From an uncultured Bacteroidales bacterium (GTDB taxonomy: Bacteria; Bacteroidota; Bacteroidia; Bacteroidales; Paludibacteraceae), in NCBI GenBank assembly GCA_900542355.1, contig UQNE01000002.1:56957-120956 (forward strand): 64,000 bases of DNA. Direction: 5' to 3'. The notes below the pieces were generated by a model, which saw nothing but the letters and a program-made list of their open reading frames with translations, had not been told where the DNA came from and ran no database searches. Of the stretch, positions 3,484-60,486 are shown piece after piece. Each line of letters begins with the position of its first letter. Positions within the stretch are counted from its first letter, which is position 1. Both the position numbers and the translations under genes were made by a program.

Positions 3484-3535
3484 ACAATAAAAAACATAAA
3501 TAAAAAGTCGGTTTAAAGACCGCGTTAGCATTCGA

Positions 3536-3568
3536 TTAGGTCTCGACAAGGTCTCGACAAAATCCGCT
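3536..3568 (+). repeat. truncated copy (A) of the TTAGGTCTCGAcaAGGTCTCGA intergenic repeat family, flanked by 7-bp direct repeats ATTCGAT (3530-3536 and 3569-3575)
   Basis: TTAGGTCTCGACAAGGTCTCGACAAAATCCGCT. Matches copies at 12437, 60351 and 23499(rc) apart from loss of the third GGTyTCGA unit. Confidence 0.7.
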
Positions 3569-12227: not shown

Positions 12228-12436
12228 TCTGCACGCTGCTATTTTTAGATAAGGACATAGCGAAAGCGATAGTAAACGGGAGAGGCTGTCTGATGAGTAA
12301 TCGGGCAGCCTTTGTTGTTGGATAGCGGGAGGAACTTGACGCCGATGAGCGAATGTTGATCGCAATGAGTAGGTTTTGACATTTTGTAAGCAATGTAATA
12401 AGAAAAGTAGCAAAATGATTATTTACGAGCAGTGTA

Positions 12437-12514
12437 TTAGGTCTCGACAAGGTCTCGATGAGGTTTCGACAAAAACGGCTCAAAGTCGGCTTGACAAAAA
12501 GACAGCAAAAATAG
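12437..12514 (+). repeat. full-length copy (B) of the TTAGGTCTCGAcaAGGTCTCGA repeat family
   Basis: TTAGGTCTCGACAAGGTCTCGATGAGGTTTCGACAAAAACGGCTCAAAGTCGGCTTGACAAAAAGACAGC. About 75 % identical to copy C at 60351. Confidence 0.75.
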
Positions 12515-12689
12515 CAAATTGATAGAAAGTTGTACAGAACGACCGAAAAAGATGTAGCGGTGGGGCATTGCACATTTTTGTTCGCAAAAATTGGCTGTGG
12601 GAGGCATAAATCGGTGGTAAGCAGGGCATTTTGTAGGACTTTTTACTCTAAGTTGCGGCAAGAAACACAAAATAATTTGTAAGTTTCGG

Positions 12690-20052: not shown

Positions 20053-20057
20053 GAGAT

Positions 20058-22274
20058 ATGCACAACGCCAAGCAGATATGCTGTATGCTGATGTTTTTCT
20101 TGTTGAGTATCAGTAATATACAGAGTCAAACCGTTAAGCGAGACACACTGCTTGAAGACTTCTCTTCTGCCGAATGGATGCGCTACTCCAATTACACTTC
20201 GGCGGTACTCACCACGCAAAACAACATCACTTGGCACTTTGAGAATATGCAGGTCGCCCAAGTTGGCAAACTAACCAGCAAAGGATTGGTGTACTACTAC
20301 AATGTCGCTCGCACTTTTGGAAGAATAGAGACAAGCAAAATCAAGGGATTGCGCAAAATAACTTTCGATGTGGCGAGCAATCAAAGTTGTTCATTTATAA
20401 TCAGTTATAGTAATACAGGTAAAAGCAAGGAGTGGACAGAATGCACTCGCTATGCTCAAACAACCGGAATGAAAAGGGATAGCATTATCCTTCCCGAAAC
20501 CGGAGATTATTACATCAAGTTCTATATAGGTGGGTACGATGGTCGTTACTTTTATCTCGACAACATCTCTTTTTACACCGAGGAGACTGACCCCGACTAT
20601 GGTGAGCCAATGGATATTGTGGATTGGACAGAGAATGGTCTGACCCTCAATATGAATGGCTGTGCGCCGGAACAAGGCGTTTCCGTGGGACTGAACGGCG
20701 ACGCAGAACAGCCCATAGAGGAAGGCAACCGCTATTCTTTCTCGGGGAAAAACGATAGGACTTACTGTATCAGTGCACCCGCTTTGCAAAGTGGAGAAAA
20801 CCTGCAACTAAGTGTTCAATATGGTGATTATCAAGGCAATAAGTACGAGTCAAATCGCCGCTACCGCATTCCGTATCTCTACCAAGATGCTACGGTGAGC
20901 AAACTCTCGTTCCGCCCCGATGACGACATCGTTGTGCGTGGAAAGACCACTATCACCACCAATGTGGCGGTGCGCAATGTGTATGTTTATCCCGGTGGTG
21001 AACTGATAGTGAATAACGGGTACACTCTCTTGTGCGCCAATCTGTTCCTTCGCACCACTGCCAACCAATCGGCTGCCGCAAGCGGACAGATAAAAGCACA
21101 CCACACCTACTACACACGCATCGTGGCCGACAAAACGCACTATTTTCAGTTGGCTCTACCTGCCAAATCGCCTGTGCGACAGGTGGTTACCACTGCCGGT
21201 GATACTTGCCTATTGGATAAGCATTGGCGACTGAATACCTACGATACACAACTCCGCGCCGAGCAAGGCACTACCACCGACAACTGGGTGCGCTTCACGG
21301 GCGACACCCTACAGGCCTGCCAAGGCTACGCTATGCTGTCGGCTTCGCCCTACTATCGCGAGTACCTGTTTCCCATCTCGCCTGCTAAAACCGCAAGCAC
21401 TACGCTCGTTGTGCCTACTCAAGCCCCCAAAGGCGACATCGATGCACAGCACGATGGCTGGAACTACCTCTGCTCACCCTATCGGAGCGTGTATATTTGT
21501 ACTCCTGCAAGCGACATAGCAGACCGAATCTACATCTCCGAACTGCGCCCGGACGGCAATTCTTATTGGCAGCACATAGCCGATACCATCTATCCTGCCA
21601 AGCCTTTCTACTACCAATCGGCAACGAGCGGCAATCTCGTATTCGGAGAAATGCTGCACTTTGAATCGACTGTCAATCAGTCGGTTGCAGCACCAATGCT
21701 ACAAACGGACAGCGCCGCTGAGACAACGACACAATGGCTGCAACTGATGCTCCAAGATTCCCTTGGGCAAATCGACGAAAGCCATATTTACCTCCACCCG
21801 ACTCGTTTTGCGGCGGGGTATCAGATTGGCAAAGACCTGCTCAAACTGCGAGGAACGGGTGCACACCTGCTTTTGTACGCCATAATGCCCTATGGCGATT
21901 TGAGCGTCTGTGCCACAGCGGACAGCACGGCGGAGCGGCAAATCAACATTGGCTGTTATTTCGCCGCCAACGGCAAGCATACTATCCGCCTGCACAACCA
22001 AGCCGACACAGAGCGTTTAGCAGAGGTTCTTCTCGTTGATAATCAGGCCAATACACAAACCAACCTCTTGCAAGAGGACTATACCTTCACGGCTTCGCAA
22101 GGCGAATCGAAAGACCGCTTTGCCCTACGCTGTGTATTCCGACAAAAAGCAACACCTACCCGTATCGATACCGATAGTAGGGTAGGTGTCGCTACTAAAT
22201 TTCTTCGCTGCGGACAACTGTTCATCGTCCGTCAAGGCGGTGTCTATGATGCTCTCGGGCGCAAAGCGCACTAA
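20058..22274 (+). CDS. secreted protein, paralog of the C-terminal ~500-aa module of the 2368-aa T9SS protein; its T9SS CTD appears truncated after the YDxLGR motif
   Basis: Signal peptide MHNAKQICCMLMFFLLSISNIQSQ. DGWNYLCSPY and TIYPAKPFYYQ align with HGWNFVGSPY and VTIYPFSAYFVQ of the giant protein. The tail ...GGVYDALGRKAH ends 18 bp before the convergent murG stop. Start chosen at 20058 rather than the ORF-track 19959, which overlaps the upstream gene. Confidence 0.6.
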   Translation: MHNAKQICCMLMFFLLSISNIQSQTVKRDTLLEDFSSAEWMRYSNYTSAVLTTQNNITWHFENMQVAQVGKLTSKGLVYYYNVARTFGRIETSKIKGLRKITFDVASNQSCSFIISYSNTGKSKEWTECTRYAQTTGMKRDSIILPETGDYYIKFYIGGYDGRYFYLDNISFYTEETDPDYGEPMDIVDWTENGLTLNMNGCAPEQGVSVGLNGDAEQPIEEGNRYSFSGKNDRTYCISAPALQSGENLQLSVQYGDYQGNKYESNRRYRIPYLYQDATVSKLSFRPDDDIVVRGKTTITTNVAVRNVYVYPGGELIVNNGYTLLCANLFLRTTANQSAAASGQIKAHHTYYTRIVADKTHYFQLALPAKSPVRQVVTTAGDTCLLDKHWRLNTYDTQLRAEQGTTTDNWVRFTGDTLQACQGYAMLSASPYYREYLFPISPAKTASTTLVVPTQAPKGDIDAQHDGWNYLCSPYRSVYICTPASDIADRIYISELRPDGNSYWQHIADTIYPAKPFYYQSATSGNLVFGEMLHFESTVNQSVAAPMLQTDSAAETTTQWLQLMLQDSLGQIDESHIYLHPTRFAAGYQIGKDLLKLRGTGAHLLLYAIMPYGDLSVCATADSTAERQINIGCYFAANGKHTIRLHNQADTERLAEVLLVDNQANTQTNLLQEDYTFTASQGESKDRFALRCVFRQKATPTRIDTDSRVGVATKFLRCGQLFIVRQGGVYDALGRKAH

Positions 22275-23435: not shown

Positions 23436-23499
23436 CTCAATCGCAGCCGTTTCAGTCCTGTTTTTGTCGAACTTTTGTCGAGACCTAATCGAGACCTAA
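23436..23499 (-). repeat. copy (D) of the TTAGGTCTCGAttAGGTCTCGA repeat family, inside the dcw cluster between ftsW and murG
   Basis: Reverse complement reads TTAGGTCTCGATTAGGTCTCGACAAAAGTTCGACAAAAACAGGACTGAAACGGCTGCG. Same orientation as dcw transcription. Confidence 0.7.
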
Positions 23500-23525
23500 G
23501 GCTGTGTTGCAACTTTTAGTTATTT

Positions 23526-31952: not shown

Positions 31953-32915
31953 TTATCGTTTTTCGGCCACTCTGAGTTTGGCACTGCGGCTTCGCGGGTT
32001 ACGCTCGACCTCTTCGGGAGAGGCAGTCAGTCCTTTTTCGATCAGGCGGAAGGGCGTGAGTATATTGCCGTAGAAATCTTTTTCGATTTCCCCTTCGAGG
32101 TTGCCAGAGCGTAGGAAGTTCTTGACGAGTCTATCTTCGAGCGAGTGGTAGGTAAGGACTGCGATGCGTCCGCCGGGGCGGAGCATATCTCGTGCGGCGA
32201 CCAACATCTCGCGCAGGGCTGCGAGTTCGTCGTTGACCTCCATGCGTAGGGCTTGGAATAGTCGTGCCAAGTCTTTCTTGGCCATAGTAGGTATGTCGAT
32301 TTCGCCGTTGGTGATGGTGCAAGCAGGCGTATGCAAGGCACAGGCGACGAGTTGCTCTGTGCGCAAGATAGGTTGCTGTGCACGGCAACGCACGATACTC
32401 TTGGCAAGGTTTTTGGCGTTGCGCATTTCGCCGTATAGATATAGTACGCGCGCGAGTTCGTCTTCGGAGTAGGTATTGACGATGTCTGCCGCATTGCGTT
32501 TGGCGGCTTGGTTCATGCGCATATCGAGCGGTCCGGGAAATCGGAAACTAAAGCCTCGTTGCGCCTCGTCGAAGTGGTGAAAACTAACTCCCAGGTCGGC
32601 CAATAGTCCGTCTATCTGTGGTACTCCGTAGTAGTCCATAAAGTTGCGCAGGTAGCGGAAGTTGCTATGTACGAAGTGCCATTGCGGGTTATCGATGAGC
32701 GATTGCGGTGTGCCGTGCTTTTGCTGCGCATTGTGGTAGGCGTCGAGGTCCTGGTCGAAGGAGAATAGTTGTCCGCCGTCGGTAAGGTGGGACATTATTG
32801 CTTTGGAGTGTCCGCCTCCGCCGAAGGTAACATCGACATAAGTGCCGTCGGGCTGAATGTTCAGTCCGTCGATGGTGGGTTGTAGCAGTGCGGGTATGTG
32901 ATAGATAGTGTCCAT
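31953..32915 (-). CDS. rsmH: 16S rRNA (cytosine1402-N4)-methyltransferase
   Basis: MDTIYHIPALL...DVTFGGGGHS. Start set at the internal Met so that its ATG overlaps the mraZ stop (TAATG). The 85-aa Arg-rich N-terminal extension in the ORF track is rejected. Confidence 0.9.
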   Translation of the reverse strand: MDTIYHIPALLQPTIDGLNIQPDGTYVDVTFGGGGHSKAIMSHLTDGGQLFSFDQDLDAYHNAQQKHGTPQSLIDNPQWHFVHSNFRYLRNFMDYYGVPQIDGLLADLGVSFHHFDEAQRGFSFRFPGPLDMRMNQAAKRNAADIVNTYSEDELARVLYLYGEMRNAKNLAKSIVRCRAQQPILRTEQLVACALHTPACTITNGEIDIPTMAKKDLARLFQALRMEVNDELAALREMLVAARDMLRPGGRIAVLTYHSLEDRLVKNFLRSGNLEGEIEKDFYGNILTPFRLIEKGLTASPEEVERNPRSRSAKLRVAEKR

Positions 32916-33370
32916 TATTCCGTTTTGGCTTTCATCTTTTGTCTGATGCGGCTTGCCAAGTCTTTTTGGTCGATTCGTTTGTCGGCGAATGTAGCGGGGT
33001 TCCACAAGGCAAAGCGGTCGAGCATACCTACGAACAGCACATCTTGTTGGGCGTTGATAGTTTCTAAGTTCTTCTTTTGTAGGAGGATACGACCTTGTGT
33101 ATCGAGGTCGAGGAACTCGGCGTCGGACATAAACTGCATGAGTAGCATTTGGTCTTCCGGATCCCATTCATCAAGGGCTTGGCGCAGTTGCCCTACCTTG
33201 TCGTTCCATACCTGCTCGGGGTAGAAAATAAGGCATTCGTTGTCGGTATCACGGCGCATAACGAGGTGTTTGCTTTCCGCCTCGTTGAGTATTTTGCGAT
33301 AGGCTGCGGGGACGAATATGCGCCCTTTCTCGTCCGCCCGAGCCTCGATATTGCCAATGAATGTACTCAT
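32915..33370 (-). CDS. mraZ: transcriptional regulator MraZ
   Basis: Duplicated SpoVT/AbrB-like halves, e.g. DEKGRIFVPA and LDTQGRILL. Confidence 0.9.
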   Translation of the reverse strand: MSTFIGNIEARADEKGRIFVPAAYRKILNEAESKHLVMRRDTDNECLIFYPEQVWNDKVGQLRQALDEWDPEDQMLLMQFMSDAEFLDLDTQGRILLQKKNLETINAQQDVLFVGMLDRFALWNPATFADKRIDQKDLASRIRQKMKAKTE

Positions 33371-33589
33371 TTTGTATCCTTGTCAGTTTTAATTTCGCTG
33401 CAAAGGTACAAAATTTATTTGATATACCCCACTTTTCCCCACAAAAAAAATATCCATAGGATTTTCAACAGGTTATCAACAAAATGCGATAGATATAGTT
33501 TTCTGATAATCAAATAGTTGTATAGGTTGTAAACAAAATGGTGGAAAGTGGGGCAAAATAACGGTGATGATACTTCATCGCGCAATACG

Positions 33590-33719
33590 ATGCATAATTA
33601 CGAATGCATGATTCAATGCATAATGCATAATTAAGAATGCATAATGTATGCTATTTTCTCCGTTTTGGGGTCTTTGATCCTTCGGAGGTGGTTCGAACAA
33701 TGCATAGTGATGAATGCAT
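33590..33719. repeat. array of seven ATGCAT hexamers within 130 bp, five in the extended form (G/C)AATGCATAATG, 220-350 bp upstream of mraZ
   Basis: ATGCAT at 33590, 33604, 33616, 33623, 33637, 33700 and 33714. Confidence 0.7.
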
Positions 33720-33821
33720 AATGCGTAGTGGAATGCTCGATATTTGCTCGATATAGGTTCGGCGTAGTATGCTACTGATAATGATTAGATAATGACTTGT
33801 ATATGACTCTTGTATGACTCG

Positions 33822-37732: not shown

Positions 37733-38146
37733 ATGGAGATTAGAGTAGATAAATACCTGTTTGCCATGCGTCTCTACAAGACGCGTACTATCGCGGCTGA
37801 TGCCTGCAAGAAAGGGCGTGTAACGATGGGCGGCGCGCAACTGAAGCCCGCCCGCACTTTCCATATAGGTGATGTTTTTTCGGTGCGCAAGGGGCCGATA
37901 ACCTACACCTATCGTATCAAGCAACTATCGGAAAACCGTCTTGGCGCGAAACTTGTGCCTGATTATCTGCAGGATATCACTGCTCCCGACCAATTGGAGT
38001 TGCTCGAACTGGCACGCCTCGCCGGGCAAACCGGGCGCGACCGTGGCACGGGAAGACCTACCAAAAAAGACCGCCGAGAGATAGAAACATTCCTCAGCGA
38101 TGACTATTTAGACACAATAGATTTTGACGATGAAGATGAAGAATAA
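37733..38146 (+). CDS. hslR: S4-domain RNA-binding protein (Hsp15/HslR-like)
   Basis: RVDKYLFAMRLYKTRTIAADACKKGRVTMGG S4 motif, plus an acidic C-terminal tail. Confidence 0.75.
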   Translation: MEIRVDKYLFAMRLYKTRTIAADACKKGRVTMGGAQLKPARTFHIGDVFSVRKGPITYTYRIKQLSENRLGAKLVPDYLQDITAPDQLELLELARLAGQTGRDRGTGRPTKKDRREIETFLSDDYLDTIDFDDEDEE

Positions 38147-38603
38147 AAAGGAAAACATTGCCGAATATATCCTCTACTTATGGCAGATAGAGGACTACCT
38201 GCGGGCTTTCCCTGCACAGGCGGACGCTACGACCGAGTTGCACGACATCTGCGAGATGATGCACCGCGAGGGTGTGGCAGAGAGCGGACATATCCAATTG
38301 GCTAAGAACGCCCTTGCCGAGATGGAAGAACTGCACCTGCTCTTGGCAGACAAAGAGGCGTCGTATCGTGCGGCGGTGCTGCAACTCACACCTGCTTTGG
38401 CACTCTTTAAGGCAAAGACAGACCGCCCCGCGATGTCGGATGTAGAGGCATGCTTGACGCTACTGTATCAGATTATGTTGCTCCACTTGCAGCACCACCC
38501 GGTGTCCGGCGAGACCGAGGCGGTACAGCAACAAGCCACCTCGCTGCTCCGATACCTCAGTCGCACCTATCGCGACAACAAAGACCTTGAGGACAATGCA
38601 TAA
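38124..38603 (+). CDS. conserved hypothetical protein, likely the DUF family found beside nth in Bacteroidales
   Basis: 159-aa alpha-helical protein. Overlaps the hslR-like gene by 23 nt. Confidence 0.5.
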   Translation: MTMKMKNKKENIAEYILYLWQIEDYLRAFPAQADATTELHDICEMMHREGVAESGHIQLAKNALAEMEELHLLLADKEASYRAAVLQLTPALALFKAKTDRPAMSDVEACLTLLYQIMLLHLQHHPVSGETEAVQQQATSLLRYLSRTYRDNKDLEDNA

Positions 38604-38625
38604 TGATGAATGCATAATGCATAAT
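38595..38625. repeat. three tandem AATGCATAATG decamers starting at the stop codon of the preceding gene, 36 bp upstream of nth
   Basis: gacAATGCATAATGatgAATGCATAATGCATAATGg. Confidence 0.7.
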
Positions 38626-38660
38626 GGATTGGTCCATTAATCGTTAACAGAGAACGAAAG

Positions 38661-39296
38661 ATGACAACGAAAGAGCGTTTTTCACATATCCTGTCGTGGT
38701 TTGCGGAGAATATGCCGGTGGCGGAATCGGAACTGCACTACGATAATGCGTTTCAACTGCTGGTGGCGGTGATGCTCTCGGCGCAGTGTACCGACAAGCG
38801 TGTTAATCAGGTTACGCCCGCTTTGTTTGCGGCTATGCCTACGCCCAAAGCGATGGCACAAGCCTCTGTAGATGAGGTGCTTAGGTATATCCGTTCGGTT
38901 AGTTACCCTAACGCCAAAGCCGCGCACTTGGTAGGTATGGCACAACGGCTGCAAGAGGTGTATGGTGGGCAAGTACCCGATAACATCGACGACCTGCAGA
39001 CGCTTCCCGGGGTGGGGCGCAAGACCGCCAATGTGGTCTGTGCTGTGATTTGGAACCAACCCACGATGGCGGTGGATACGCATATCTTTCGCGTTTCCGA
39101 GCGGTTGGGACTGACCACGAATAGCAAATCGCCCTTGCAGACCGAAAAACAACTAGTGCGCTATATCCCCGCCATGCTCATCCCCAAGGCACACCATTGG
39201 CTCCTGCTCCACGGCAGGTATGTCTGCCAAGCCCGCACTCCGCATTGCGCCGACTGCGGACTCGCCCCCTACTGCCGATACCATAGCAGGATATAA
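38661..39296 (+). CDS. nth: endonuclease III
   Basis: HhH-GPD motif LPGVGRKTANVV, and the 4Fe-4S cluster CxxxxxxCxxCxxxxxC at the C-terminus. Confidence 0.95.
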   Translation: MTTKERFSHILSWFAENMPVAESELHYDNAFQLLVAVMLSAQCTDKRVNQVTPALFAAMPTPKAMAQASVDEVLRYIRSVSYPNAKAAHLVGMAQRLQEVYGGQVPDNIDDLQTLPGVGRKTANVVCAVIWNQPTMAVDTHIFRVSERLGLTTNSKSPLQTEKQLVRYIPAMLIPKAHHWLLLHGRYVCQARTPHCADCGLAPYCRYHSRI

Positions 39297-39436: not shown

Positions 39437-39468
39437 GTTGCATATTTGCGAGAAATGTAGTACCTTTG
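39437..39468 (+). promoter_or_regulatory. candidate promoter (gTTG-N20-TAccTTTG)
   Basis: ctgttgcatatttgcgagaaatgtagtacctttgcgg. Confidence 0.45.
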
Positions 39469-39640
39469 CGGCGAGAATGTGATGAATGTTTTTATTGTCC
39501 ACCTAACAAACACCACTATAAATGATATACCTCGCTTACATACGACGCAAACGCCACACATCGTTTTATACGGCTGCTTGCGGTGTGTCTGCTGCTGTGG
39601 TAACTATAGATTTTCGTAAGGTATATTGGCTCCCCTTATT

Positions 39641-39680
39641 AGGATTTCCGGCTTTGTGGTCTGAAATCCTTTTTCTTTTT
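39641..39680 (+). terminator. intrinsic terminator (8-bp perfect stem aggatttc/gaaatcct, 14-nt loop, T-rich tail), 200 bp upstream of the giant gene
   Basis: Read directly. Confidence 0.55.
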
Positions 39681-39880
39681 GGGTGCATCTCGGATAGGGC
39701 ACTGAATCTTAACAATCGTACATTTTGGCATCTCTGTGCCAAACAGCATAGGATGTGCATAGGATACGCATAGGATAGGCTGACGATAGACCACATCTTC
39801 GCACCACAAAATCTTAACAAAAAGCACTTTTTTGATACCTGATAATAACTATATTTAAACAGAAACCAACCACTACGAAT

Positions 39881-42800
39881 ATGAAAAAAATATACTTCTT
39901 GGCATTTTTATTTTTATGCACTTTCCTAACCATCGGAACAAACACCGCGTGGGGAGCAGAAATTACCTTTGGACCAGATTGGAATGCATTATTTGCTACA
40001 TCTTATAATGGACAAATTCCCTCAGTTAAAGCAAATTCTTTGAATTTAGAGGGTTCTATCACTCCTGTAACTATTAGGGTTGCTAATGGTACTTCTACTA
40101 ATGGATTCGTAAAAACATCGGATTTTCGTGCATATAAAGGATATAAAATAACAATCTCATCGACGGAAAATATTACGAAAATTACATCTGTAAAAGGTGG
40201 AAAGAATTTCTCTTCAGGCATAACAGCAAATGTTGGAAAGTTGTCAATTTCTAACGATGCAATCAATTGGTCTTCTAATGCACCAGATATTAAGTCTGTA
40301 GTTTTTAGTATTTCAGGTACTGTTAGTTTTGCCTCTTTTACTGTTACTTACGAAACAGGTGGTTCTACTCCCACTTACACCGTAACCTATGATGCAAATG
40401 GAGGTGCGGTCAGTCCTGCAAGCGATAGTTATACCAATACTCCTATCAACTTGCCTATTCCGACTATAGAGGGCTGTTATTTATTTGATGGTTGGTACAC
40501 TGCCAAAACAGGAGGAACACAAGTACAATCTCCATACACTCCCACTGCCAATATAACTCTATATGCCCATTGGACAGCACAATCCAATAAATTGAGTACA
40601 CCAACCAATTTGAAGACAACCGACATCACAAGCAATAGTGCTAAATTATCGTGGGATGCTGTTCTGCATGCAAGCAGTTATACTATTTCGTATATGGAGG
40701 AGAAAAACAACACTCCAAATGATATAGAGGATATTACATCAACCACTTACACATTAGATGGTTTGCTTCCTAATACATACTATATTTGGTCAGTAAAAGC
40801 CATTGGCGATGGTACTACCTATTGTGACAGCGAGGGAAGTCAAACAACAGGCGACTTCACCACCGCTGCCCTGCCGAAATATACCATCACTTGGAGTACG
40901 CCAACCGGCACAAGTACTACTGAAGTTACTCCGGGCGACAAGGTTGTGTTGCCTACCACTGAACCAATAGCCCCATATAGTTGTTCAGAGAAAGTTTTTG
41001 TGGGGTGGAGTGAAACGAATGTTGGCACCATTGGCACAGATGATGCCCCCGCTTTCATTACTTCTCAAACTATTCCTAATTCTAATATTACCTACTACGC
41101 CGTGTTTGCTACAAAAACAACTATGGGCGGAAGTCAAGATATTGTATTTGATGTTAAGAGTATTGCCCAGAAAAATAGTTGGAAAAACGGGATACAGTAC
41201 TCAAATTACACTATTGCGCCAATTACTATTACATATTCAGGTGGGGGCAATGACGGTAAATATTATTCTTCTGATAATTCTTGGCGTAGTTACAGTGGAG
41301 GCAGTGTTGTGGTGAGTGGAGGTTCGATTTCGGAGGTAATTTCAACCCCTCAACAGACATTTACGAAGCAAACAGATGGAACATGGAAATATACAGGAAC
41401 AGAAACTGTTAAGTTTACCCAATTTACCATAAAAACTGCTGTTGTCAGTTCTACTTACACCGACTATGTTACCGGTTGTGTAGATTGTACCGCCCCCGCG
41501 GAGGCATTGGCATTGACATTGTCGCAGGAAACTGCCAACTTAGGAGCGGATGGTATGGTGCAGACATCATTCTCCACTACGGGTGGTAATGGGGCAATAA
41601 TAGACTATGCTATCAATCCAACCATTGGTGCTAATCTCGATAAGACAAACAAAACTATTACTTTCTCTGCCATAGGCACATACACATTGACAGCCTCGCA
41701 GTTGTACACCACCATTGATGGAACAACCTATTGTGGCGGAAAGGATAAAAAGACTATCACTGTTACTAACACGCCGGTACTCTATTTCCCGACCACGCTT
41801 GCCGACCCGATTGTGTTTGGTAAAGTGGAATGTGGCGGAAATACTCCTTTGACGGATAAACAAACCATCAGCCTGCGGGGGTATAACCTGACAGGTGATG
41901 TTACCGTTACCGTAACCGGCGACTACAAAATTGCCGGCACCGAGAGTACCGCATTGGCGGATTATACTACCTCTCTTACGCTGCCGAAAGACGCTGTAAG
42001 TGGTTCATCTGCAAGCGTTTATGTGCTTTCTACCCCCCCCATGCAGAGCAGCAGTCCCACAACGGGAAAGGTTACATTTACCACTGCTGGAGGTAATACA
42101 TTAGAGGTAAATCTTTCCACACCTGATATCACTTGTACCGAATACACCCTCACACTCAACGACCGCGGTACAACCACTTCGGCAGGAAACTATCTTGCCG
42201 GTGCGGGTGTCCCCAAACCCACCGACCCGACGGGAGTATGTACCGAGCCGATTAACTATATCTTCGATGGTTGGGCAACCGCCGAAGTGGCAGAAGGCAG
42301 CACCGCCTATACCAAAGTGCCCTTCCCATACACCATGCCCGCCGCCAATACCACCCTCTACGCGGTGTATAAGTATGAGGGGAATACCATATCGGATACA
42401 CAATTTAAGAGAGGGACATTGGACGATTTGGTAGATGGGCAAAAAGTAGTAATAGTAGAACAAGACGCAAAAAAAGCCCTCAATTCCAAAACGTATCAAA
42501 GTTATTATCTTACGGCTACGGCTGTTACCATAAACAATGATTTGATCGACGTAACAAATAATGCGCTAATATGGGAACTCAAAAAGAACGGAAGTAATTA
42601 TTCTTTTCTACAAGATGGCAAGTACTTAAATATCACAGAATCTTCTACCCATTATAATCTTACAGTTACATCTCAAGAGGATAGTTGGAGCATAGTTGCA
42701 TTCGGAGATGGATATAGCCTGCAAAGTACAACTTATGCGGACTACTATGCCGTGTATAACTCGAAATATACTGAATATACGACTGATAAGACCGCATACG

Positions 42801-45800
42801 CATTGCAATTCTACATTCCTGTGGCTATTCAGGAATACACCACCGCTCCCTCTTGCACTCCGTGTATCAAGGGAACGGATGATATTACCGTTACTTCTGC
42901 CCAAGGCATTTGGGTAGAGGCGGTAACGCCATTGAATATCACCGCAACCAATCTGGACAAGAACGCTGACGGAGCCAAAGTTACCATTACCGCCACATCT
43001 TTGACCGGCGGTTTTACACTCAAGACACAGGGAACCAATAGCAGTGGCAGCGAATCGGTAACACTCGAAACCGGCTATAGCAACAGCATATACAATGCCA
43101 ACCTAACGGTAGTCTATTCTCCGACAGCAGACAATATCATCGAAGAGGGGAAAATCGCTCTGCGTGTTTATCGTACCAACGGCACGACTACCTATGCCAC
43201 CGACACTATCATTGTGCGTGGTAGGTCGTTACCGGCAGAGTTTGTATTTGCAGCCGAGACCACCAATGGTTGGGTGGCTCTCCCTGCCGATTTAGGCACC
43301 AGTTCTACCGATGCGGTTAAAAAGCCATACACGATTTCCGTGGACGATAACGCAGCCCCGACAAAGGCTACCTTAGCCCCGCAAAGTGCGCTCTATTCTG
43401 CGGCTATACGCTCTACAGTCAATGCCGTACCAACAGGACTGCGCTTCAAGGCAGGCGAAAAATATCTGCAAGGCTCTCAGTCCCAAGGGGAAACCAAGGT
43501 GTGGCTGTCTTCCACCAACAGCGAGCAGATGCAGTCGTGGGAGTTGCATAGCAGCAATCTCACCGACTACTTTGTGCGCCTGCGAGCAGCGGAAGAAGGA
43601 CGCTATCTATCCTACAACGCCACACAGGACAAGATAGCCAACTACAAGCAGGAGAGTCGCTTGCGTATTTTGCCTGTAGAGAATACCTGTGTGCGCTATG
43701 ACGCACCGAATATCAGTGTGCATGCACTCATCTCTACAAGCATTACTTTTGTTTGGGAGGCAATAGCGGGCGTCACTGACTATGAATACAGCCTTGACGG
43801 TGAAAAGACATGGCAGGCGTGCGGCGACATCGAGACACTCGGCACGGAAGTTAAATGGACATTGGCAAACCTGAAATCCGAAACCAAGTACACCGTTTAT
43901 ATCCGTGCCAAGGTGGCAGACGGCAAGAGCAACTGCTCGGCTTCCGATAGTGAGACCTTCACCACCCCCACTTGCGACGATGTACCTGTCGATTTGTGGG
44001 TATCGCCTACCGCCAATGCCGCTACTATTATGTGGAGTGCCAAGGCGCCAACCGCTACCGTAAAAATCTATGCTGACGAACAAGGAACTACATTGGTCAA
44101 AGAAACACTCAACGCAACCACACCTTGTAAGATAATCGGCTTGGAGCAGAATACGGACTACTATTACCAAGTGTTGGCGGGCGGTTCGTGTGCTTCGGCA
44201 ATAGCGCATTTCAAGACAGAGTCAAACGAGGTGAGCATCGTCGAATGGAAGAAAGATGCCGTTATCGTGGACTTGAATACCGAAGTAACCGATGCCGACG
44301 AAGTCAGCATCTTGGTCGAAGGGCAGAAGACCCACGGTACCAACAACAATGTAGCCGATGACCTGTTCTTCAGCAAATACTATGAGGCAACAGGAAGTGT
44401 GAAACTATTTGCAATATATAATGGTACCACATCAAAGATAAATTTAACTCCATATACTGTTAAAATAGGGCAATATAATAATAATTCTGCAAGTTGGAAT
44501 AGTATCATTCAACTGAAACAATATGGTAAAGAAACAGGTTTTATTGATAGTGGTGAAGAAATTATAGTTTATTCTGCAGGGCAATATCCCGATTGCAATG
44601 TGTCGTCCGAGGATGATTGCAAGATAATGAAGTGCGTGATAGATAATGGTAAATTTGATTTGACGACGGCTTACTTAAATAAATCAGGTGTTGTATTTGG
44701 TGGAAACCAACAATTAGTATTATGTCAAGATGGCAAACCTATAGATATATTGGGGAGTATCTCGGATAATTCAGAAGCAGGTCTTCCTATTGCAGTTACA
44801 GAAAGGCCATCGTGGGGTGATGGAAAAGGTTGGGTAGGTTATGGTTGTAATGTGCAAAATGAGACTGAGAAAATAGCAATAAGTACGAATCGTTCTTTGT
44901 TAATTCGCAAGAAAGTAAAGAGTGGTGCAAATACACTGGTTCGAAATGTCAATAGCAGATTTAATACATTAGGAAAATATGACAGTACAGATCCTGCTAA
45001 ATGTGTTGAGGGTGAATGGAATGGTATGCAAATACCAGACTATGTTGAAGATAATGGGGTTGATGCTTCTTGCAAGGGCTTTGAATATGTATCTGACTTC
45101 AACTACAACGACTATTATACCACCTACGATTCTATCGCCAATCTGGAGATAAAGGGCAATCGTAATGAGGACGGAACATACACAATACCTATTCCAAAAC
45201 TGGATACAATGGCTTGTACCAACTTGCGTCTGCAACTCAAGAAGAAAGGTACTATTCAGGCAACACATGAGGAGAAAGTGCCAATTATTATTTACAAAAC
45301 TACTGACACCAAGAATAGCGAGTTCTTCGGCGAGAAACTGACCGATGAGGTATGCGCCACCTGCGATGTGGTAGTGCGCGACAATGCACAACTCTCGCAC
45401 ATTGCGGGCGGTAAGCAGCAGTTCCGCGATATGTATGTCTATACGGGTAGTAGTCTGAATATACCTGCGGAGCAAACTATGTCGCTCAACAAAGTATGTA
45501 TGTTTGCCACCAACGACAATGTTTCGTATGCCGTTATCAACAATAGCAATGATGCCGCTGCGGCTATCTCTGTAAAAGAGGTCAGCCACGTCAAGCGCAT
45601 TGACGGACGCTATTGGTACCCGTTCTCGCTGCCCTACGACTGCAACATCGCTGACATCGTCCAACTCAACGGACAGCCGCTTGGTGTCTATGGTACCGAT
45701 TGGGGTATCAAGTACTACAATGGTTATGAGAGACAGAAAGATGGCAACAGTACCACCCACTATGGCGAGGTGTCCAAATACTGGACAATGATGCCCGAAG

Positions 45801-46987
45801 ATAGCGTACTCAAAGCCTACACCGGTTATATCATCGGGCTGTTTGTACCTGCTGCCGATGAACCGCTGATGAAGTCGGTTAATTTCCCGCCTGCTACCGA
45901 GAGTGCTTACACCGAAAATGCGGACTCTAAGACAACACCTATCACCAACTGGTCGGTCAACCTGAGTGCTAAACCACGCCACCATGGCTGGAACTTTGTC
46001 GGCTCACCGTATATCTCGCTCTTTGGCTCGAACAATAATACATTGGGCGAGGGGCTTTACAACACCCAAGTGCAGATGGGGTGGACAGATGCCTTAGGAA
46101 ACCAACGAGGCAAAGACCACATCTATGTGTCTATCCCCAATGGTGGAAATACCAACACCTACACACAGGCACTGGCTTCGGGCGTTACGATTTATCCGTT
46201 CTCGGCATATTTCGTGCAGGCGATAGACCCGACCAATAATCAGAGCAATACTTTGAGCCTGACCTACAGCAAAGCCAACCGACACTTGCTCGCCTCCCCG
46301 GCTCGTGCGGCAGCAGACGCATCACCGCTGATCTTGGCGGAGTTGGATATCCGCTGCGGTGCGCTCCACGACAACACGGGTGTACTGGTGAGCGATGACT
46401 ACTCCGTGGATTATGAGATAGGCGACGACCTCTACAAGATGTACGCCGCTGCGGCTAAACCGCAACTCTATACCACCGACGCAAGCAGCGAGAAGATGGC
46501 TTACCAAGCCTTGCCCGACCCGGCGGCACACGCTGTTCCGCTCGGCATATACCTGCCCGCTGCGGGCGACTACACCTTGTCGCTTAATCGCTCTGTGAGC
46601 CGATTGGAGGCTGCCGAGGCGGTTTATCTGCTCCACGACGGAAAGGTGGTAGCCGACTTGCTCCAAACTGACTATACGCTTACGGCTGCCGCGCGTGGTA
46701 CGCTCAGCGGCTACACGCTCGATATCCGCCGTGCGCCGAAGATGCCTACCGACATCCTCCCCGCCGCCGGCGATGCGCCCTACCTGATAGCCCGCGATGG
46801 AGTGCTTACCGTGGCTAACCTACCCGCAGGCGCTATGGTGCAGGTATATGATGTGTTAGGGCGTGTCCTCTTGCGCACCACTGCCACCGAGCAATCGCTC
46901 TCCGTGCCCGCTGCGCAGACAGGTGTCTATACGGTGCTTATCACCACCGACAACCTGCAAACCGTACTCAAAACCCTACTTCGCTAA
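39881..46987 (+). CDS. 2368-aa multidomain cell-surface protein secreted by the type IX secretion system: signal peptide, three Listeria-Bacteroides-type repeats, several FN3-like modules, a Cys-rich AT-rich insert, and a T9SS type-A C-terminal sorting domain
   Basis: Signal peptide MKKIYFLAFLFLCTFLTIGTNTAWG. Repeats YTVTYDANGG..GWYT..ITLYAHWT (~40376), YTITWSTPTG..FVGWSE..ITYYAVF (~40870) and YTLTLNDRGT..FDGWATAE..TTLYAVY (~42140). FN3-like (LSWDAV..YTISY; SITFVWEAIAGVTDYEYS; ATIMWSAK). CTD tail ...VQVYDVLGRVLLRTTATEQSLSVPAAQTGVYTVLITTDNLQTVLKTLLR. Confidence 0.85.
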   Translation: MKKIYFLAFLFLCTFLTIGTNTAWGAEITFGPDWNALFATSYNGQIPSVKANSLNLEGSITPVTIRVANGTSTNGFVKTSDFRAYKGYKITISSTENITKITSVKGGKNFSSGITANVGKLSISNDAINWSSNAPDIKSVVFSISGTVSFASFTVTYETGGSTPTYTVTYDANGGAVSPASDSYTNTPINLPIPTIEGCYLFDGWYTAKTGGTQVQSPYTPTANITLYAHWTAQSNKLSTPTNLKTTDITSNSAKLSWDAVLHASSYTISYMEEKNNTPNDIEDITSTTYTLDGLLPNTYYIWSVKAIGDGTTYCDSEGSQTTGDFTTAALPKYTITWSTPTGTSTTEVTPGDKVVLPTTEPIAPYSCSEKVFVGWSETNVGTIGTDDAPAFITSQTIPNSNITYYAVFATKTTMGGSQDIVFDVKSIAQKNSWKNGIQYSNYTIAPITITYSGGGNDGKYYSSDNSWRSYSGGSVVVSGGSISEVISTPQQTFTKQTDGTWKYTGTETVKFTQFTIKTAVVSSTYTDYVTGCVDCTAPAEALALTLSQETANLGADGMVQTSFSTTGGNGAIIDYAINPTIGANLDKTNKTITFSAIGTYTLTASQLYTTIDGTTYCGGKDKKTITVTNTPVLYFPTTLADPIVFGKVECGGNTPLTDKQTISLRGYNLTGDVTVTVTGDYKIAGTESTALADYTTSLTLPKDAVSGSSASVYVLSTPPMQSSSPTTGKVTFTTAGGNTLEVNLSTPDITCTEYTLTLNDRGTTTSAGNYLAGAGVPKPTDPTGVCTEPINYIFDGWATAEVAEGSTAYTKVPFPYTMPAANTTLYAVYKYEGNTISDTQFKRGTLDDLVDGQKVVIVEQDAKKALNSKTYQSYYLTATAVTINNDLIDVTNNALIWELKKNGSNYSFLQDGKYLNITESSTHYNLTVTSQEDSWSIVAFGDGYSLQSTTYADYYAVYNSKYTEYTTDKTAYALQFYIPVAIQEYTTAPSCTPCIKGTDDITVTSAQGIWVEAVTPLNITATNLDKNADGAKVTITATSLTGGFTLKTQGTNSSGSESVTLETGYSNSIYNANLTVVYSPTADNIIEEGKIALRVYRTNGTTTYATDTIIVRGRSLPAEFVFAAETTNGWVALPADLGTSSTDAVKKPYTISVDDNAAPTKATLAPQSALYSAAIRSTVNAVPTGLRFKAGEKYLQGSQSQGETKVWLSSTNSEQMQSWELHSSNLTDYFVRLRAAEEGRYLSYNATQDKIANYKQESRLRILPVENTCVRYDAPNISVHALISTSITFVWEAIAGVTDYEYSLDGEKTWQACGDIETLGTEVKWTLANLKSETKYTVYIRAKVADGKSNCSASDSETFTTPTCDDVPVDLWVSPTANAATIMWSAKAPTATVKIYADEQGTTLVKETLNATTPCKIIGLEQNTDYYYQVLAGGSCASAIAHFKTESNEVSIVEWKKDAVIVDLNTEVTDADEVSILVEGQKTHGTNNNVADDLFFSKYYEATGSVKLFAIYNGTTSKINLTPYTVKIGQYNNNSASWNSIIQLKQYGKETGFIDSGEEIIVYSAGQYPDCNVSSEDDCKIMKCVIDNGKFDLTTAYLNKSGVVFGGNQQLVLCQDGKPIDILGSISDNSEAGLPIAVTERPSWGDGKGWVGYGCNVQNETEKIAISTNRSLLIRKKVKSGANTLVRNVNSRFNTLGKYDSTDPAKCVEGEWNGMQIPDYVEDNGVDASCKGFEYVSDFNYNDYYTTYDSIANLEIKGNRNEDGTYTIPIPKLDTMACTNLRLQLKKKGTIQATHEEKVPIIIYKTTDTKNSEFFGEKLTDEVCATCDVVVRDNAQLSHIAGGKQQFRDMYVYTGSSLNIPAEQTMSLNKVCMFATNDNVSYAVINNSNDAAAAISVKEVSHVKRIDGRYWYPFSLPYDCNIADIVQLNGQPLGVYGTDWGIKYYNGYERQKDGNSTTHYGEVSKYWTMMPEDSVLKAYTGYIIGLFVPAADEPLMKSVNFPPATESAYTENADSKTTPITNWSVNLSAKPRHHGWNFVGSPYISLFGSNNNTLGEGLYNTQVQMGWTDALGNQRGKDHIYVSIPNGGNTNTYTQALASGVTIYPFSAYFVQAIDPTNNQSNTLSLTYSKANRHLLASPARAAADASPLILAELDIRCGALHDNTGVLVSDDYSVDYEIGDDLYKMYAAAAKPQLYTTDASSEKMAYQALPDPAAHAVPLGIYLPAAGDYTLSLNRSVSRLEAAEAVYLLHDGKVVADLLQTDYTLTAAARGTLSGYTLDIRRAPKMPTDILPAAGDAPYLIARDGVLTVANLPAGAMVQVYDVLGRVLLRTTATEQSLSVPAAQTGVYTVLITTDNLQTVLKTLLR

Positions 46988-47022: not shown

Positions 47023-47532
47023 ATGAAAAAAGTATATTCTATACTCCGCCTCAAGACACTATCGCTGCTCTTGTTGCTCTCCTGGCTGCCCGCTGTGGCA
47101 CAGTACACTCGTCCCGTGCTTGGTATAGTGGACGATATGCATTCCACCACCCGCTCGGTGTGCGCTGTACAGTCCGACTCTGCGGCACGCGACCACCGCG
47201 TCTGGACACCCGCCCGCAACGGCTATCGTGTAACCGAGGCCGGAGCAGAACGACCGACTATGGTGGGAAATATCTGCTCTATCGGTGCTGAACGCGCTGC
47301 CGTGAATGCGTGCTATACGCAGGCTACGGCGGCTATGGCTGCCCCGCTATCGGAGATAGGGGCTATCTCGCCTTACGAGGATACCCCGACAGAGATGTCC
47401 CGTCCGCGCCGTGTCAGCCCGGGCGGCGGTATAGGCGAACCCGGAGCGCTGCCTGTCGGCGATGTGCCGTATCCGTTCTTCGCCCTTTGCTTAGCAGCCT
47501 ATTGGCTCTCCGCCCGCCGCAAGAAAGCCTAA
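47023..47532 (+). CDS. small secreted Ala/Gly/Pro-rich protein with C-terminal hydrophobic anchor plus basic tail (…YPFFALCLAAYWLSARRKKA); function unknown
   Basis: Signal peptide MKKVYSILRLKTLSLLLLLSWLPAVAQ. Begins 35 bp after the giant gene. GC-rich (>60 %) relative to surroundings. Confidence 0.5.
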   Translation: MKKVYSILRLKTLSLLLLLSWLPAVAQYTRPVLGIVDDMHSTTRSVCAVQSDSAARDHRVWTPARNGYRVTEAGAERPTMVGNICSIGAERAAVNACYTQATAAMAAPLSEIGAISPYEDTPTEMSRPRRVSPGGGIGEPGALPVGDVPYPFFALCLAAYWLSARRKKA

Positions 47533-47579
47533 GAAATCACTCAACACCCGTCGCAAGAAGGTGTAAGAGGAAAGAAAAA

Positions 47580-47667
47580 GCAGATAGAAATGCTATTTTT
47601 ACCACAAAAAAGACATTTCTATCTGCTATTTTTCGTATAAAAAAAGACATTTCCATCTGCTTTTTTT
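47580..47667 (+). terminator. compound intrinsic terminator: 13-bp inverted repeat gcagatagaaatg / catttctatctgc plus T-tract, followed by a second near-copy of the 3' arm (gacatttccatctgc) plus T7
   Basis: Read directly. Ends the giant-gene transcription unit. Confidence 0.6.
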
Positions 47668-47918
47668 ATTGAGCCGCTTCATCGTGCATTCATTAAATGC
47701 CATATAAAGTTCGTTAGAGCGCAGTGGACACCGGCCATTGAATACACTATGGTTCTCTGTTAAGACCCACCATTGCGTCCACAGACTTATGGAATCCCCG
47801 GAATAGCGGTTAATTCGTTAAGACAATGGAGAAAAGAAGGATATGAAAAATTGGCAACCTTTTTTAATACAACTAAGAGTATTACAAGAGTAGTATCAGG
47901 GTATTATTTGGTTCGCTT

Positions 47919-47962
47919 AATCACATACTAATCACATACTAATCACATACTAATTACATAGT
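47919..47962. repeat. tandem repeat, 4 x 11 bp (AATCACATACT x3, then degenerate AATTACATAGT)
   Basis: Read directly in the AT-rich spacer upstream of ileS. Confidence 0.8.
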
Positions 47963-48037
47963 ACGGTAAGGGGGCATATAGTAGCCAAACAGGGCGCAAA
48001 CTATGGACTGGAAAGATAAAAATAAGACAAAATAACG

Positions 48038-48102
48038 ATTAGACATGTAATTGCCATTGGTTTTTCAATATATAATTACCATATAATTAGACATGTAATT
48101 GT
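48038..48102. repeat. 16-bp direct repeat ATTAGACATGTAATTG (48038-48054 and 48087-48102) flanking tataattaccatataatt, a motif shared with the GxxExxY cassette flank
   Basis: The 15-mer AATTACCATATAATT occurs at 48073-48087 and at 26193-26207. Confidence 0.6.
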
Positions 48103-48271
48103 GTATTCATCATTATGCACTTATGCATTGAATAAAGCATTCTTGATTTGGTGCGGTTTGCGCCAAAAAACGGGTTGCGGTTGCGTATATCAGATTTTTG
48201 TAGTAACTTTGTGCGCTATTTGTACCAATAGCCCTCAACGAGTAATAAACAGATATATAGCAATTTGATAT

Positions 48272-60244: not shown

Positions 60245-60350
60245 GCAGGGAATACTTAATTGATTTAGATAGAAGGAAAATGACATTTTGTTTACTTTTC
60301 TGCCGAAAAACGAACAAAATGATTGTTTGGGTGCTAAGTCTTAGGTCTCG

Positions 60351-60414
60351 ACAAGGTCTCGACGAGAGTCCGACAAAGTTGGCTCAAAGTCGGGATAACA
60401 AAAAGATAGGAAAA
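60351..60414 (+). repeat. full-length copy (C) of the TTAGGTCTCGAcaAGGTCTCGA repeat family
   Basis: TTAGGTCTCGACAAGGTCTCGACGAGAGTCCGACAAAGTTGGCTCAAAGTCGGGATAACAAAAAGATAGG. Confidence 0.75.
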
Positions 60415-60486
60415 CAGGCGAAAAAGTAGAAATTGTATGGATAAGGAGGATTAGGAAAAATGAAGGAAACGAGCGAAAGGAAAGAG

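Follow-up and report, generated by a model that had tools for sequence, protein, structure and literature searches.

A giant type IX secretion-type cargo gene in an uncultured Bacteroidales bacterium

We analyzed a stretch of 64,000 nucleotides from an uncultured Bacteroidales bacterium of the Paludibacteraceae (contig UQNE01000002.1 of assembly GCA_900542355.1, positions 56,957 to 120,956), here called the window. Its longest open reading frame (ORF), at positions 39881 to 46987 on the forward strand, to which all coordinates refer unless stated otherwise, encodes a protein of 2368 residues with the layout of a cargo of the type IX secretion system (T9SS); the second longest is ileS with 1123 residues. 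A previous reading of the sequence alone had singled out this gene as the largest of the window, had assigned Listeria-Bacteroides repeats, FN3 modules, and a T9SS C-terminal domain (CTD) to its product, and had explained its uneven base composition by the acquisition of domains, among them an AT-rich, Cys-rich insert. The gene and its rank by size were borne out. The AT-rich parts have a homologous counterpart at the same position in all homologues examined, and they probably represent resident cassettes whose alleles are exchanged by recombination.

The protein starts with a putative Sec signal peptide, read from the translation (MKKIYFLAFLFLCTFLTIGTNTAWG/AE), apart from which the first 220 residues are not conserved across alleles, continues with a variable N-terminal half, and closes with a conserved C-terminal module of ~930 residues that ends in the CTD. 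A search against Pfam and NCBIfam recovered the domain types named in the sequence-only reading. The Listeria-Bacteroides repeat Flg_new reached 70.4 bits overall in Pfam, with copies at residues 166 to 230, ~334 to 408 (22 bits when scanned alone), and ~755 to 829 (30 bits). Matches to the Pfam family fn3 were located at residues 239 to 312 and ~1275 to 1350, and an FN3-like match to Pur_ac_phosph_N at residues 1373 to 1446. Ig-like domains are present besides these three Flg_new and three FN3-type domains. An AlphaFold2 (AF2) model of residues 1 to 1115, with a predicted local distance difference test (pLDDT) score of 67.6, consists of a string of Ig/FN3-like beta-sandwiches, and Foldseek searches with this model returned generic Ig/FN3 arrays only, including titin-type filaments, fibronectin, and an S-layer protein.

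The CTD was marginal by sequence and backed by its fold. TIGR04183 scored 23.2 bits against the C-terminus, just above its cut-off of 23; PF18962 (24.2 bits; cut-off, 27) and the model for type C CTDs (20.7 bits; cut-off, 40) remained below theirs. A close homologue (79% identity over 87% of the query) is named "T9SS type A sorting domain-containing protein" at NCBI. In the AF2 model of residues 1440 to 2368 (pLDDT, 83), model residues ~862 to 928 form a beta-sandwich. Foldseek matched the C-terminal ~70 residues to the CTD of PorZ (5m11; E, 7e-4; probability, 1.0) and the C-terminus to the CTD of NucA bound to the T9SS (8glk_D; probability, 1.0; TM score, 0.63), and phmmer matched it to the CTD of RgpB (7pq4; E, 1.2e-3). 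With the whole model, confident PDB matches were obtained for the CTD only, and BFVD gave one uninformative "putative hemin binding protein."

A search in gut metagenomes yielded 714 homologues at E ≤1e-3, of which the best 120 all scored >2300 bits; all comparison sequences are metagenome assemblies or metagenome-assembled genomes (MAGs). Two conserved blocks, C1 and C2, and a third block, C3, were delimited. Scaffold block C1 (residues 986 to 1516; 42836 to 44428), with ~90% median identity in the 120 homologues and a GC content at third codon positions (GC3) of 0.56, holds two FN3-type domains (residues ~1275 to 1446) and the first strands of a domain resembling the lamin tail domain (LTD), with the motif FFSKYYEA. 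Block C2 (residues 1730 to 2120; 45068 to 46240) is a beta-rich set of domains without a name, marked by the motifs YWYPFSLP and HHGWNFVGSPY; it formed a single cluster at 70% identity among 112 homologues and found no relative in Pfam or PDB. Block C3 together with the CTD (46241 to 46984; CTD at residues ~2286 to 2368, positions 46736 to 46984, assigned by TIGR04183/PF18962 and Foldseek) has a GC content of 0.60 and a bimodal identity to the homologues, 87 of which share 70 to 75% and 11 of which share ≥90% of the residues. The ~930-residue C-terminal module as a whole occurs in 1347 representative clusters, at the C-terminus of proteins of 1,000 to 4,000 residues. A further ORF of the window, at 19959 to 22274 (forward strand), encodes a 771-residue distant paralogue of the C-terminal ~570 residues of the big protein (22% identity; E, 4e-13) that matches no Pfam or NCBIfam model and whose motif HDGWNYLCSPY parallels HHGWNFVGSPY; two or more genes of this genome thus make use of the unnamed module. 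We also considered a polymorphic toxin or contact-dependent inhibition locus and rejected it, as the C-terminus of the protein is a conserved CTD and its variable parts are N-terminal or internal.

The compositional mosaic of the gene

Sliding-window analysis confirmed that the composition of the gene is far from uniform. The GC content ranged from 0.33 to 0.62 in 300-nt windows, and GC3 in 100-codon windows ranged from 0.19 to 0.72, with values of 0.19 to 0.25 at residues 1 to 150, 0.21 to 0.30 at residues 1500 to 1700, and 0.72 at the 3′ end; the swing thus lies mainly at third codon positions, i.e., at synonymous sites. The standard deviation of the 100-codon GC3 values was 0.144, compared to 0.048 in codon shuffles (z = 17.2), and the same test gave z values between -2.2 and 4.5 for 24 other genes of the window. 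Along the gene, conservation correlated with GC3 (Spearman coefficient, 0.75; p = 1.7e-9), whereas the coefficient for the first two codon positions was only 0.29.

The outliers are the AT-rich blocks and not the GC-rich 3′ end. For the other genes of the window GC3 was 0.61 ± 0.06, with a minimum of 0.34 and a 99th percentile of 0.73. The 3′ block is indeed high in GC, as the sequence-only reading had stated, but its GC3 of 0.69 falls within this range, near the top, so that it is not compositionally foreign; its ~60% GC arises mostly because the sequence is rich in Ala, Gly, Pro, and Arg (together 31% of the residues; GC at first codon positions, 0.65). The AT-rich regions listed previously, an N-terminal one and one at ~44380 to 45300, are low in GC, but a further AT-rich block at 42377 to 42835 had been missed. 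The Cys richness ascribed to the second of the listed regions amounts to a modest, roughly two-fold enrichment (6 Cys in 213 residues, or 2.8%, versus 1.3% gene-wide).

Four hypervariable cassettes with sharp borders

The AT-rich parts of the gene coincide with those that vary between homologues. Identity to the best 120 homologues was ~90 to 100% at residues 600 to 800, 950 to 1450, and 1750 to 2368, but only ~30 to 45% at residues 1 to 550, 800 to 950, and 1450 to 1750. Within these variable stretches we delimited four cassettes. N1 (residues 27 to 221; 39959 to 40543; GC, 0.37; GC3, 0.22), presumably the distal tip of the protein, is hypervariable, with blastn breakpoints at 39956 and 40543 that recur in comparisons with the related loci L082 and L083; divergence from L081 and L084 begins at 39956 as well and extends further in the 3′ direction. 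AF2 gave no confident fold for N1 (pLDDT, <50). N2 (residues 420 to 528; 41138 to 41464; GC, 0.38; GC3, 0.30) is variable and of low conservation, being 98% identical in the homologue P0005 and ~20 to 30% identical in others. H1 (residues 833 to 985; 42377 to 42835; GC, 0.375; GC3, 0.35), also variable, is 99 to 100% identical to the sequences of L081 and L082 and ~50% identical to those of L083 and L084, with breakpoints at 42375 and 42836.

The fourth cassette, HVR2 (residues 1517 to 1729; 44429 to 45067; GC, 0.355; GC3, 0.23), is the segment that had been regarded as an AT-rich, Cys-rich insert. Its breakpoints, at 44427 and 45067 to 45068, were identical in three independent comparisons. 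It is 100% identical to HVR2 of P0002, a protein whose N-terminus is just 30% identical to that of the window, and ~30 to 45% identical to HVR2 of most others. The region produced a subthreshold match to LTD (PF00932) at residues 1492 to 1625; the whole protein scored 21.5 bits and the excised segment that carries HVR2 scored 26.9 bits (E, 6.8e-6), both below the Pfam cut-off of 34.3. AF2 modeled HVR2 from an alignment of distant homologues with a pLDDT mostly between 85 and 95, and in this model HVR2 is predicted to form the body of an LTD-like beta-sandwich with an alpha/beta excursion carrying several Cys residues. The conserved first strands of this domain (FFSKYYEA…) and its last helix may serve as anchors for recombination. 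When HVR2 alone served as the query of a protein search, no match was obtained, not even its parent protein, which marks a sensitivity limit of the tool and is not a biological result.

At the edges of the AT-rich blocks the DNA identity to close relatives drops sharply from 97 to 100% to ~50% and then returns, and the nearest neighbor of the window sequence changes from block to block along the gene. The composition steps noted in the sequence-only reading thus do mark units of recombination. The cassettes also differ in age from the scaffold: between alleles, the number of synonymous substitutions per synonymous site (dS) lies between 1.4 and saturation in the cassettes, compared to 0.02 to 0.2 in adjacent scaffold. 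By anchor-based, alignment-free clustering we distinguished 15 types of N1 among 119 homologues, at least 4 types of H1 among 65 typed homologues, and 9 types of HVR2 among 112 homologues, as opposed to a single type of C2. Cluster counts from an alignment (46 for N1, 43 for N2, 31 for H1, and 13 for HVR2) were discarded as inflated by misalignment in the hypervariable parts. The N1 type of the window has only two members, the closest relative being P0059 (94% identity), and BLAST showed that neither its N1 nor its N2 is a singleton.

The cassettes assort combinatorially. Among 59 fully typed proteins we counted 30 distinct cassette combinations, HVR2 type 1 being paired with 13 types of N1, and in the window itself N1 and HVR2 are of rare types and H1 is of a common one. 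One HVR2 allele is shared between sister species as well: in the DNA of L087, which belongs to the lineage of the window, and L005 from a sister species, HVR2 is 91 to 96% identical, compared to 56 to 76% for the upstream part and 61 to 68% for C3. Similarly, HVR2 of the window is 68% identical to that of the distant representative P0122, to which C2 is only 56% identical, and thereby resembles it more than it does most of the HVR2 alleles in its own lineage.

Since every homologue stems from metagenome assemblies or MAGs, and since long blocks of 95 to 100% identity invite strain switching, the mosaic and its allele combinations could have been created by assemblers that joined co-occurring strains across conserved blocks. 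We consider this quite unlikely. The full-length protein of the window was found in identical form on five contigs, the GC3 mosaic lies within the single sequence of the window and does not depend on any comparison, and the same cassette boundaries recur in species-level genomes of unrelated studies. Strain switching may inflate the number of combinations, but the divergent alleles themselves cannot arise in this way.

Constraint on the cassettes

Within one type of HVR2 the ratio of nonsynonymous to synonymous substitution rates (dN/dS) was 0.16 to 0.29, from which it follows that HVR2 alleles are functional and under purifying selection. For N2 the corresponding ratio was ~1.1 to 1.3, calculated from few changes. 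Values near 1, together with the lack of a predictable fold for N1, would be in line with the view that the AT-rich blocks are nothing but weakly constrained spacers drifting toward AT, with neither diversifying or frequency-dependent selection nor a role in recognition; mutation bias predicts a low GC3 in such sequence, and positive selection is not demonstrated. Relaxed constraint of this kind would, however, leave a continuum of sequences, and what we observed are discrete, deeply separated allele types that recur with 94 to 100% identity in different backgrounds and that are retained across species. With the low within-type dN/dS of HVR2 and its model as a compact domain in addition, relaxed constraint as the sole cause appears improbable.

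Colinearity of the cassettes in all relatives

The comparison with orthologs covered human-gut MAGs of the Hadza, UBA, and UMGS collections and ruminant Paludibacteraceae MAGs. In all homologues and species examined, a homologous, colinear segment lies at the position of each cassette. For HVR2 this holds for 120 of the 120 best homologues and for all orthologues of other species, and core residues of the segment, e.g., W1651, N1670 to R1676, and C1585, are invariant across homologues. Low GC3 is shared in the same way: every orthologue examined, those of other species included, shows a drop in GC3 both at HVR2 and within its N-terminal part, and at residues 1500 to 1700 the GC3 of the orthologues was 0.21 to 0.43, compared to 0.55 to 0.8 in the flanks.

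These data bear directly on the proposal that AT-rich segments were inserted from a donor of low GC content and that the 3′ end, rich in GC, came by a separate acquisition. Such events would leave steep changes of GC and GC3 inside a single ORF, sharp identity breakpoints, and a dS far above that of the scaffold, all of which we observed. An insert from outside is nevertheless contradicted by a colinear segment in all relatives and a universally low GC3, both of which are accounted for by recombination cassettes. Colinear conservation in relatives, one of the findings that the sequence-only reading had named as speaking against it, was observed for the supposed insert, and its idea of recombination is upheld. 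The confident AF2 model of HVR2, which was built from an alignment of distant homologues, likewise indicates that the fold is shared, and the 3′ end has a GC3 in the genomic range. Acquisition of foreign domains is therefore, in our estimation, very improbable; what is exchanged appears to be different alleles of a segment already resident in the gene.

Hypervariable blocks with fixed borders downstream of a conserved regulatory leader are also reminiscent of expression-site systems, in which cassettes are rewritten within one genome from silent copies, by a diversity-generating retroelement (DGR), or by an invertible or shufflon system. Against such programmed variation, the 64-kb window contains no second copy of any segment of the gene, the sole repeat of gene sequence being a 38-nt protein-motif match to a paralogue, and no inverted repeats beyond matches of chance size surround the cassettes or the promoter. 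No repeat of a cassette that could act as a DGR template was found in the window either, although no search aimed at a reverse transcriptase was made. The divergence between alleles spans 150 to 210 codons and includes indels across ~200 codons, unlike the adenine-targeted changes of DGRs, and the alleles are stable, recurring with 99 to 100% identity in different samples. With repeats sought within the 64-kb window, we regard programmed rewriting as extremely unlikely.

Leader, partner gene, and neighborhood of the locus

The upstream region of the gene had been described as a dedicated promoter-leader-terminator unit. This unit proved real as a conserved element, but generic scans for sigma-70 promoters and terminators did not flag it. 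It begins with the promoter-like motif TAccTTTG at 39461 to 39468, identified by reading the sequence, which agrees with TAnnTTTG, the Bacteroidetes -7 consensus, and whose position is kept in the lineage of the window and in the sister species. A conserved, apparently structured leader or small RNA of ~200 nt follows at 39475 to 39682, with a terminator-like hairpin at 39641 to 39670 and a T-run at 39670 to 39680. The leader is 95 to 100% identical in relatives whose neighboring nth gene is 75 to 89% identical, and it can be aligned across species. RNAalifold predicted a long-range helix and a terminal hairpin with 41 pairs, just 2 of which showed compensatory changes, and no Rfam family matched. 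The 5′ box of the leader occurs once in the window and only in the 10 closest loci.

The conserved part of the 5′ region that follows the leader hairpin and precedes the start codon holds three tandem GCATAGGAT boxes with a period of 11 nt (39746 to 39776), which are conserved across species. Among the loci fetched, leader and GCATAGGAT boxes are unique to the locus of the big gene; together they could act as an attenuator, or as a small RNA accompanied by an array to which a regulator binds. The called ORF of 83 codons that overlaps the leader (39522 to 39773) is probably not coding, its frame being broken in sister species, where the loop of the hairpin differs by an indel of 1 nt and the hairpin is followed by a large insertion. 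Sister species also carry AATTAATGG / AATTAACG repeats in the 5′ spacer of the big gene.

Downstream, a gene for a 169-residue partner protein (47023 to 47532) starts 35 nt past the stop codon of the big gene, with nothing in between, and is probably cotranscribed with it. In the predicted protein, a signal peptide and a variable middle part precede a highly conserved RRVSPGGGIGEPGA..P[VI]GD[VI]P motif, after which the chain ends with a hydrophobic helix and a basic tail. In each of the 21 closest loci, the sequence that encodes this motif immediately follows the big gene. No family or name for the protein was found in any source or library searched. Its P-x-G-D-[VI]-P sequence followed by a hydrophobic helix and a basic tail recalls sorting signals of the PEP-CTERM/LPXTG type, but it matched no model. 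A function as an immunity gene was rejected, because the product is a secreted, membrane-tailed protein with a conserved C-terminal motif and does not resemble a cytoplasmic immunity protein.

The type of the partner accorded with the type of C3 in 7 of 7 loci, and both follow the downstream synteny, which is ileS for one type and deoR-SIS-gatZ for the other. A free allelic dimorphism of the pair was discarded as a reading, since in additional loci the pairing went with lineage and synteny. This behavior and the GC3 within the genomic range contradict the notion that the GC-rich 3′ end and the 169-residue gene were acquired; they rather appear to form a linked module that follows the lineage. 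In the sister lineage (L082 and L083), deoR-SIS-gatZ follows the partner gene where the lineage of the window (47533 to 48271) has ileS, and the locus therefore lies at a synteny breakpoint between lineages. The compound terminator postulated downstream of the big gene is present at 47575 to 47665 as overlapping, AT-rich, nested hairpins (inverted repeats I1 and I2) followed by T-runs, but it comes after the partner gene and not right after the big gene.

The order nth, leader, big gene, partner gene is kept in at least eight loci of the window lineage and the sister species, and the surroundings are, as previously described, of the housekeeping kind, with SecDF, recA, murE, a penicillin-binding protein, rsmH, nth, ileS, and Dcp. 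Some flanking genes are themselves mosaic within the lineage. The dS was 0.40 to 0.47 for nth (38661 to 39296) and 0.23 to 0.29 for an S4-domain gene (37733 to 38146), and it was ~0.05 for DUF4924 and ileS; along its length nth is first 100%, then 83 to 89%, and then 98% identical to its counterpart in L081. Mosaic flanks fit a recombination hotspot around a diversifying locus, from which recombination and diversity appear to spill over.

Several other features of the window were recorded. The rsmH ORF on the reverse strand (31953 to 33167) has an N-terminal extension of ~84 residues ahead of its TIGR00006 match (residues 85 to 402), and its GC3 falls locally to 0.34 (z = 4.5), which suggests that the true start lies further downstream than the first start codon listed. 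Units of AGGTCTCGACAAGGTCTCGA are dispersed in both orientations at 3527 to 3557, 12428 to 12469, 23445 to 23513 (inverted), and 60332 to 60377, and a 126-nt pair at 12403 to 12528 and 60307 to 60432, 75% identical, looks like a small repeat element. Short AT-rich tandem motifs of the AATGCATAAT type occur at 33587 to 33741 and 38593 to 38637, and four units of the ACATACTAATC type are located upstream of ileS at 47920 to 47960.

A putative surface fiber with exchangeable cassettes

We think it likely that the gene encodes a giant T9SS surface fiber in which resident AT-rich allele cassettes are swapped by recombination between strains and occasionally between sister species. Given the Sec signal and the type A-like CTD, a surface-anchored fiber with its N-terminus pointing outward is the most likely product, and the protein has the stalk of tandem beta-sandwich domains and the cell anchor, in the form of the CTD, expected of a fibrillar adhesin. 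The protein would be exported by the Sec system and then by the T9SS, would be anchored through its CTD, and would form a serial beta-sandwich fiber on the cell surface, accompanied by the small partner protein encoded by the probably cotranscribed gene. The scaffold of the gene, with a codon composition typical of the genome, is interrupted by the four resident segments N1, N2, H1, and HVR2; each of these occurs in the population in the form of several alleles that are very old, diverge strongly from one another, and are rich in AT at synonymous sites. Homologous recombination initiating in the conserved scaffold would exchange these alleles and give each strain its own combination, and frequency-dependent pressure by phages, host antibodies, or variable ligands may preserve the diversity of the cassettes.

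The low GC3 of the cassettes may reflect that fast-evolving alleles cannot recombine with each other and drift to an AT-biased mutational equilibrium, whereas the recombining scaffold may be kept at the genomic GC3 by selection or by GC-biased gene conversion (PMC4450053).

Several points weigh against the fiber with exchanged cassettes. No adhesive or ligand-binding domain was found in the Pfam scan, the sole hint being RicinB_lectin_2 at residues 990 to 1275 (E, 0.068); N1 and part of H1 have a pLDDT of <50, and C2 is without a structural relative, so that we infer function from architecture alone. No T9SS machinery was recognized among the ORFs of the window that were scanned, secretion being deduced from the CTD. 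Part of the assortment may be artificial if assemblers switched strains inside conserved blocks. Between types, the saturation of dS precludes an estimate of dN/dS, and the only dN/dS values near 1, those of N2, come from few substitutions.

A more far-reaching possibility is that leader RNA, cargo, and partner constitute an undescribed, self-contained T9SS fiber system whose cassettes are under balancing selection across species. The leader RNA ending in a terminator would then gate expression by read-through, the cargo would be built on the unnamed ~930-residue C-terminal module that is present in more than 1300 protein clusters, and the partner, with a tail resembling a sorting signal, would be matched by type to the C-terminal block of the cargo, while the AT-rich cassettes would allow each strain to recognize phage, host antibody, or kin in its own way. 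We judge this possibility unlikely.

As a surface fiber with exchanged cassettes, the gene would follow the well-known pattern of a mosaic hypervariable surface protein in a T9SS cargo family that is uncharacterized, and nothing in the data contradicts established principles. It provides an unusually clean case, backed by numbers, of a T9SS surface protein whose alleles vary cassette by cassette; its host is an uncultured commensal of the human and animal gut, whereas variation of this kind has so far been described mostly in pathogens. The cassette types are possible strain markers and indicate the parts of the fiber likeliest to meet phages, antibodies, and ligands. GC3 troughs at the same positions in every species offer a natural test of what holds bacterial GC3 above its mutational equilibrium, in which selection or GC-biased gene conversion acting on scaffold that recombines is set against decay of segments unable to do so. 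The C-terminal module, the partner protein, and the leader RNA are uncharacterized elements that deserve names.

Comparison with known systems

We found no description in the literature of the family of the big gene or of T9SS cargo cassettes in Paludibacteraceae, but the elements of the system have counterparts elsewhere. The region bearing HVR2 resembles the lamin tail domain (PF00932) in that it is modeled as a beta-sandwich and gives a subthreshold match; it differs by the large alpha/beta excursion with several Cys residues, and no solved LTD was among its top Foldseek matches. Por_Secre_tail is a recognized anchor of fibrillar adhesin-like proteins in Bacteroidetes (Monzon et al. 2021, PMC8286594). 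Like these proteins, the product of the big gene is long and combines a signal peptide, a stalk of the FN3/Ig/Flg_new type, and a C-terminal T9SS sorting and anchor domain. Unlike them, it has no known adhesive domain, carries the unnamed ~930-residue C-terminal module, and belongs to a locus that also includes a conserved leader and, downstream, a dedicated partner gene.

SprB and RemA of Flavobacterium johnsoniae are giant T9SS adhesins with type B CTDs and with partner genes for SprF/PorP-like outer membrane proteins. The locus described here shares with them a very large, repetitive T9SS cargo and a small accessory gene immediately downstream, whereas its CTD matches type A (TIGR04183) and its 169-residue partner, with a signal peptide and a C-terminal helix followed by basic residues, matched no family. 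A parallel in genetic architecture only is offered by the target-recognition domains of the HsdS subunits of type I restriction-modification systems, which have fixed borders and conserved spacers, are shuffled by recombination, and are typically AT-richer than the genome. In both cases discrete variable domains between conserved parts are recombined combinatorially; the proteins, their location, and their function are unrelated.

The central variable region of the flagellin gene fliC is a further example of a mosaic, recombining surface protein. "Mosaic evolution" has been described for outer membrane protein families of Escherichia coli (PMC12175518), and variable surface proteins of Neisseria are encoded by recombining mosaic genes (PMC5020929). 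Compared to these cases, the gene of the window has four cassettes within 7 kb, its host is an uncultured commensal and no pathogen, and the GC3 contrast between cassettes and scaffold (0.22 to 0.35 versus 0.56 to 0.69) is very strong and extends across species. It has in common with all of them that conserved and hypervariable, exposed segments alternate, that local recombination swaps allele classes, and that nearest neighbors switch along the gene.

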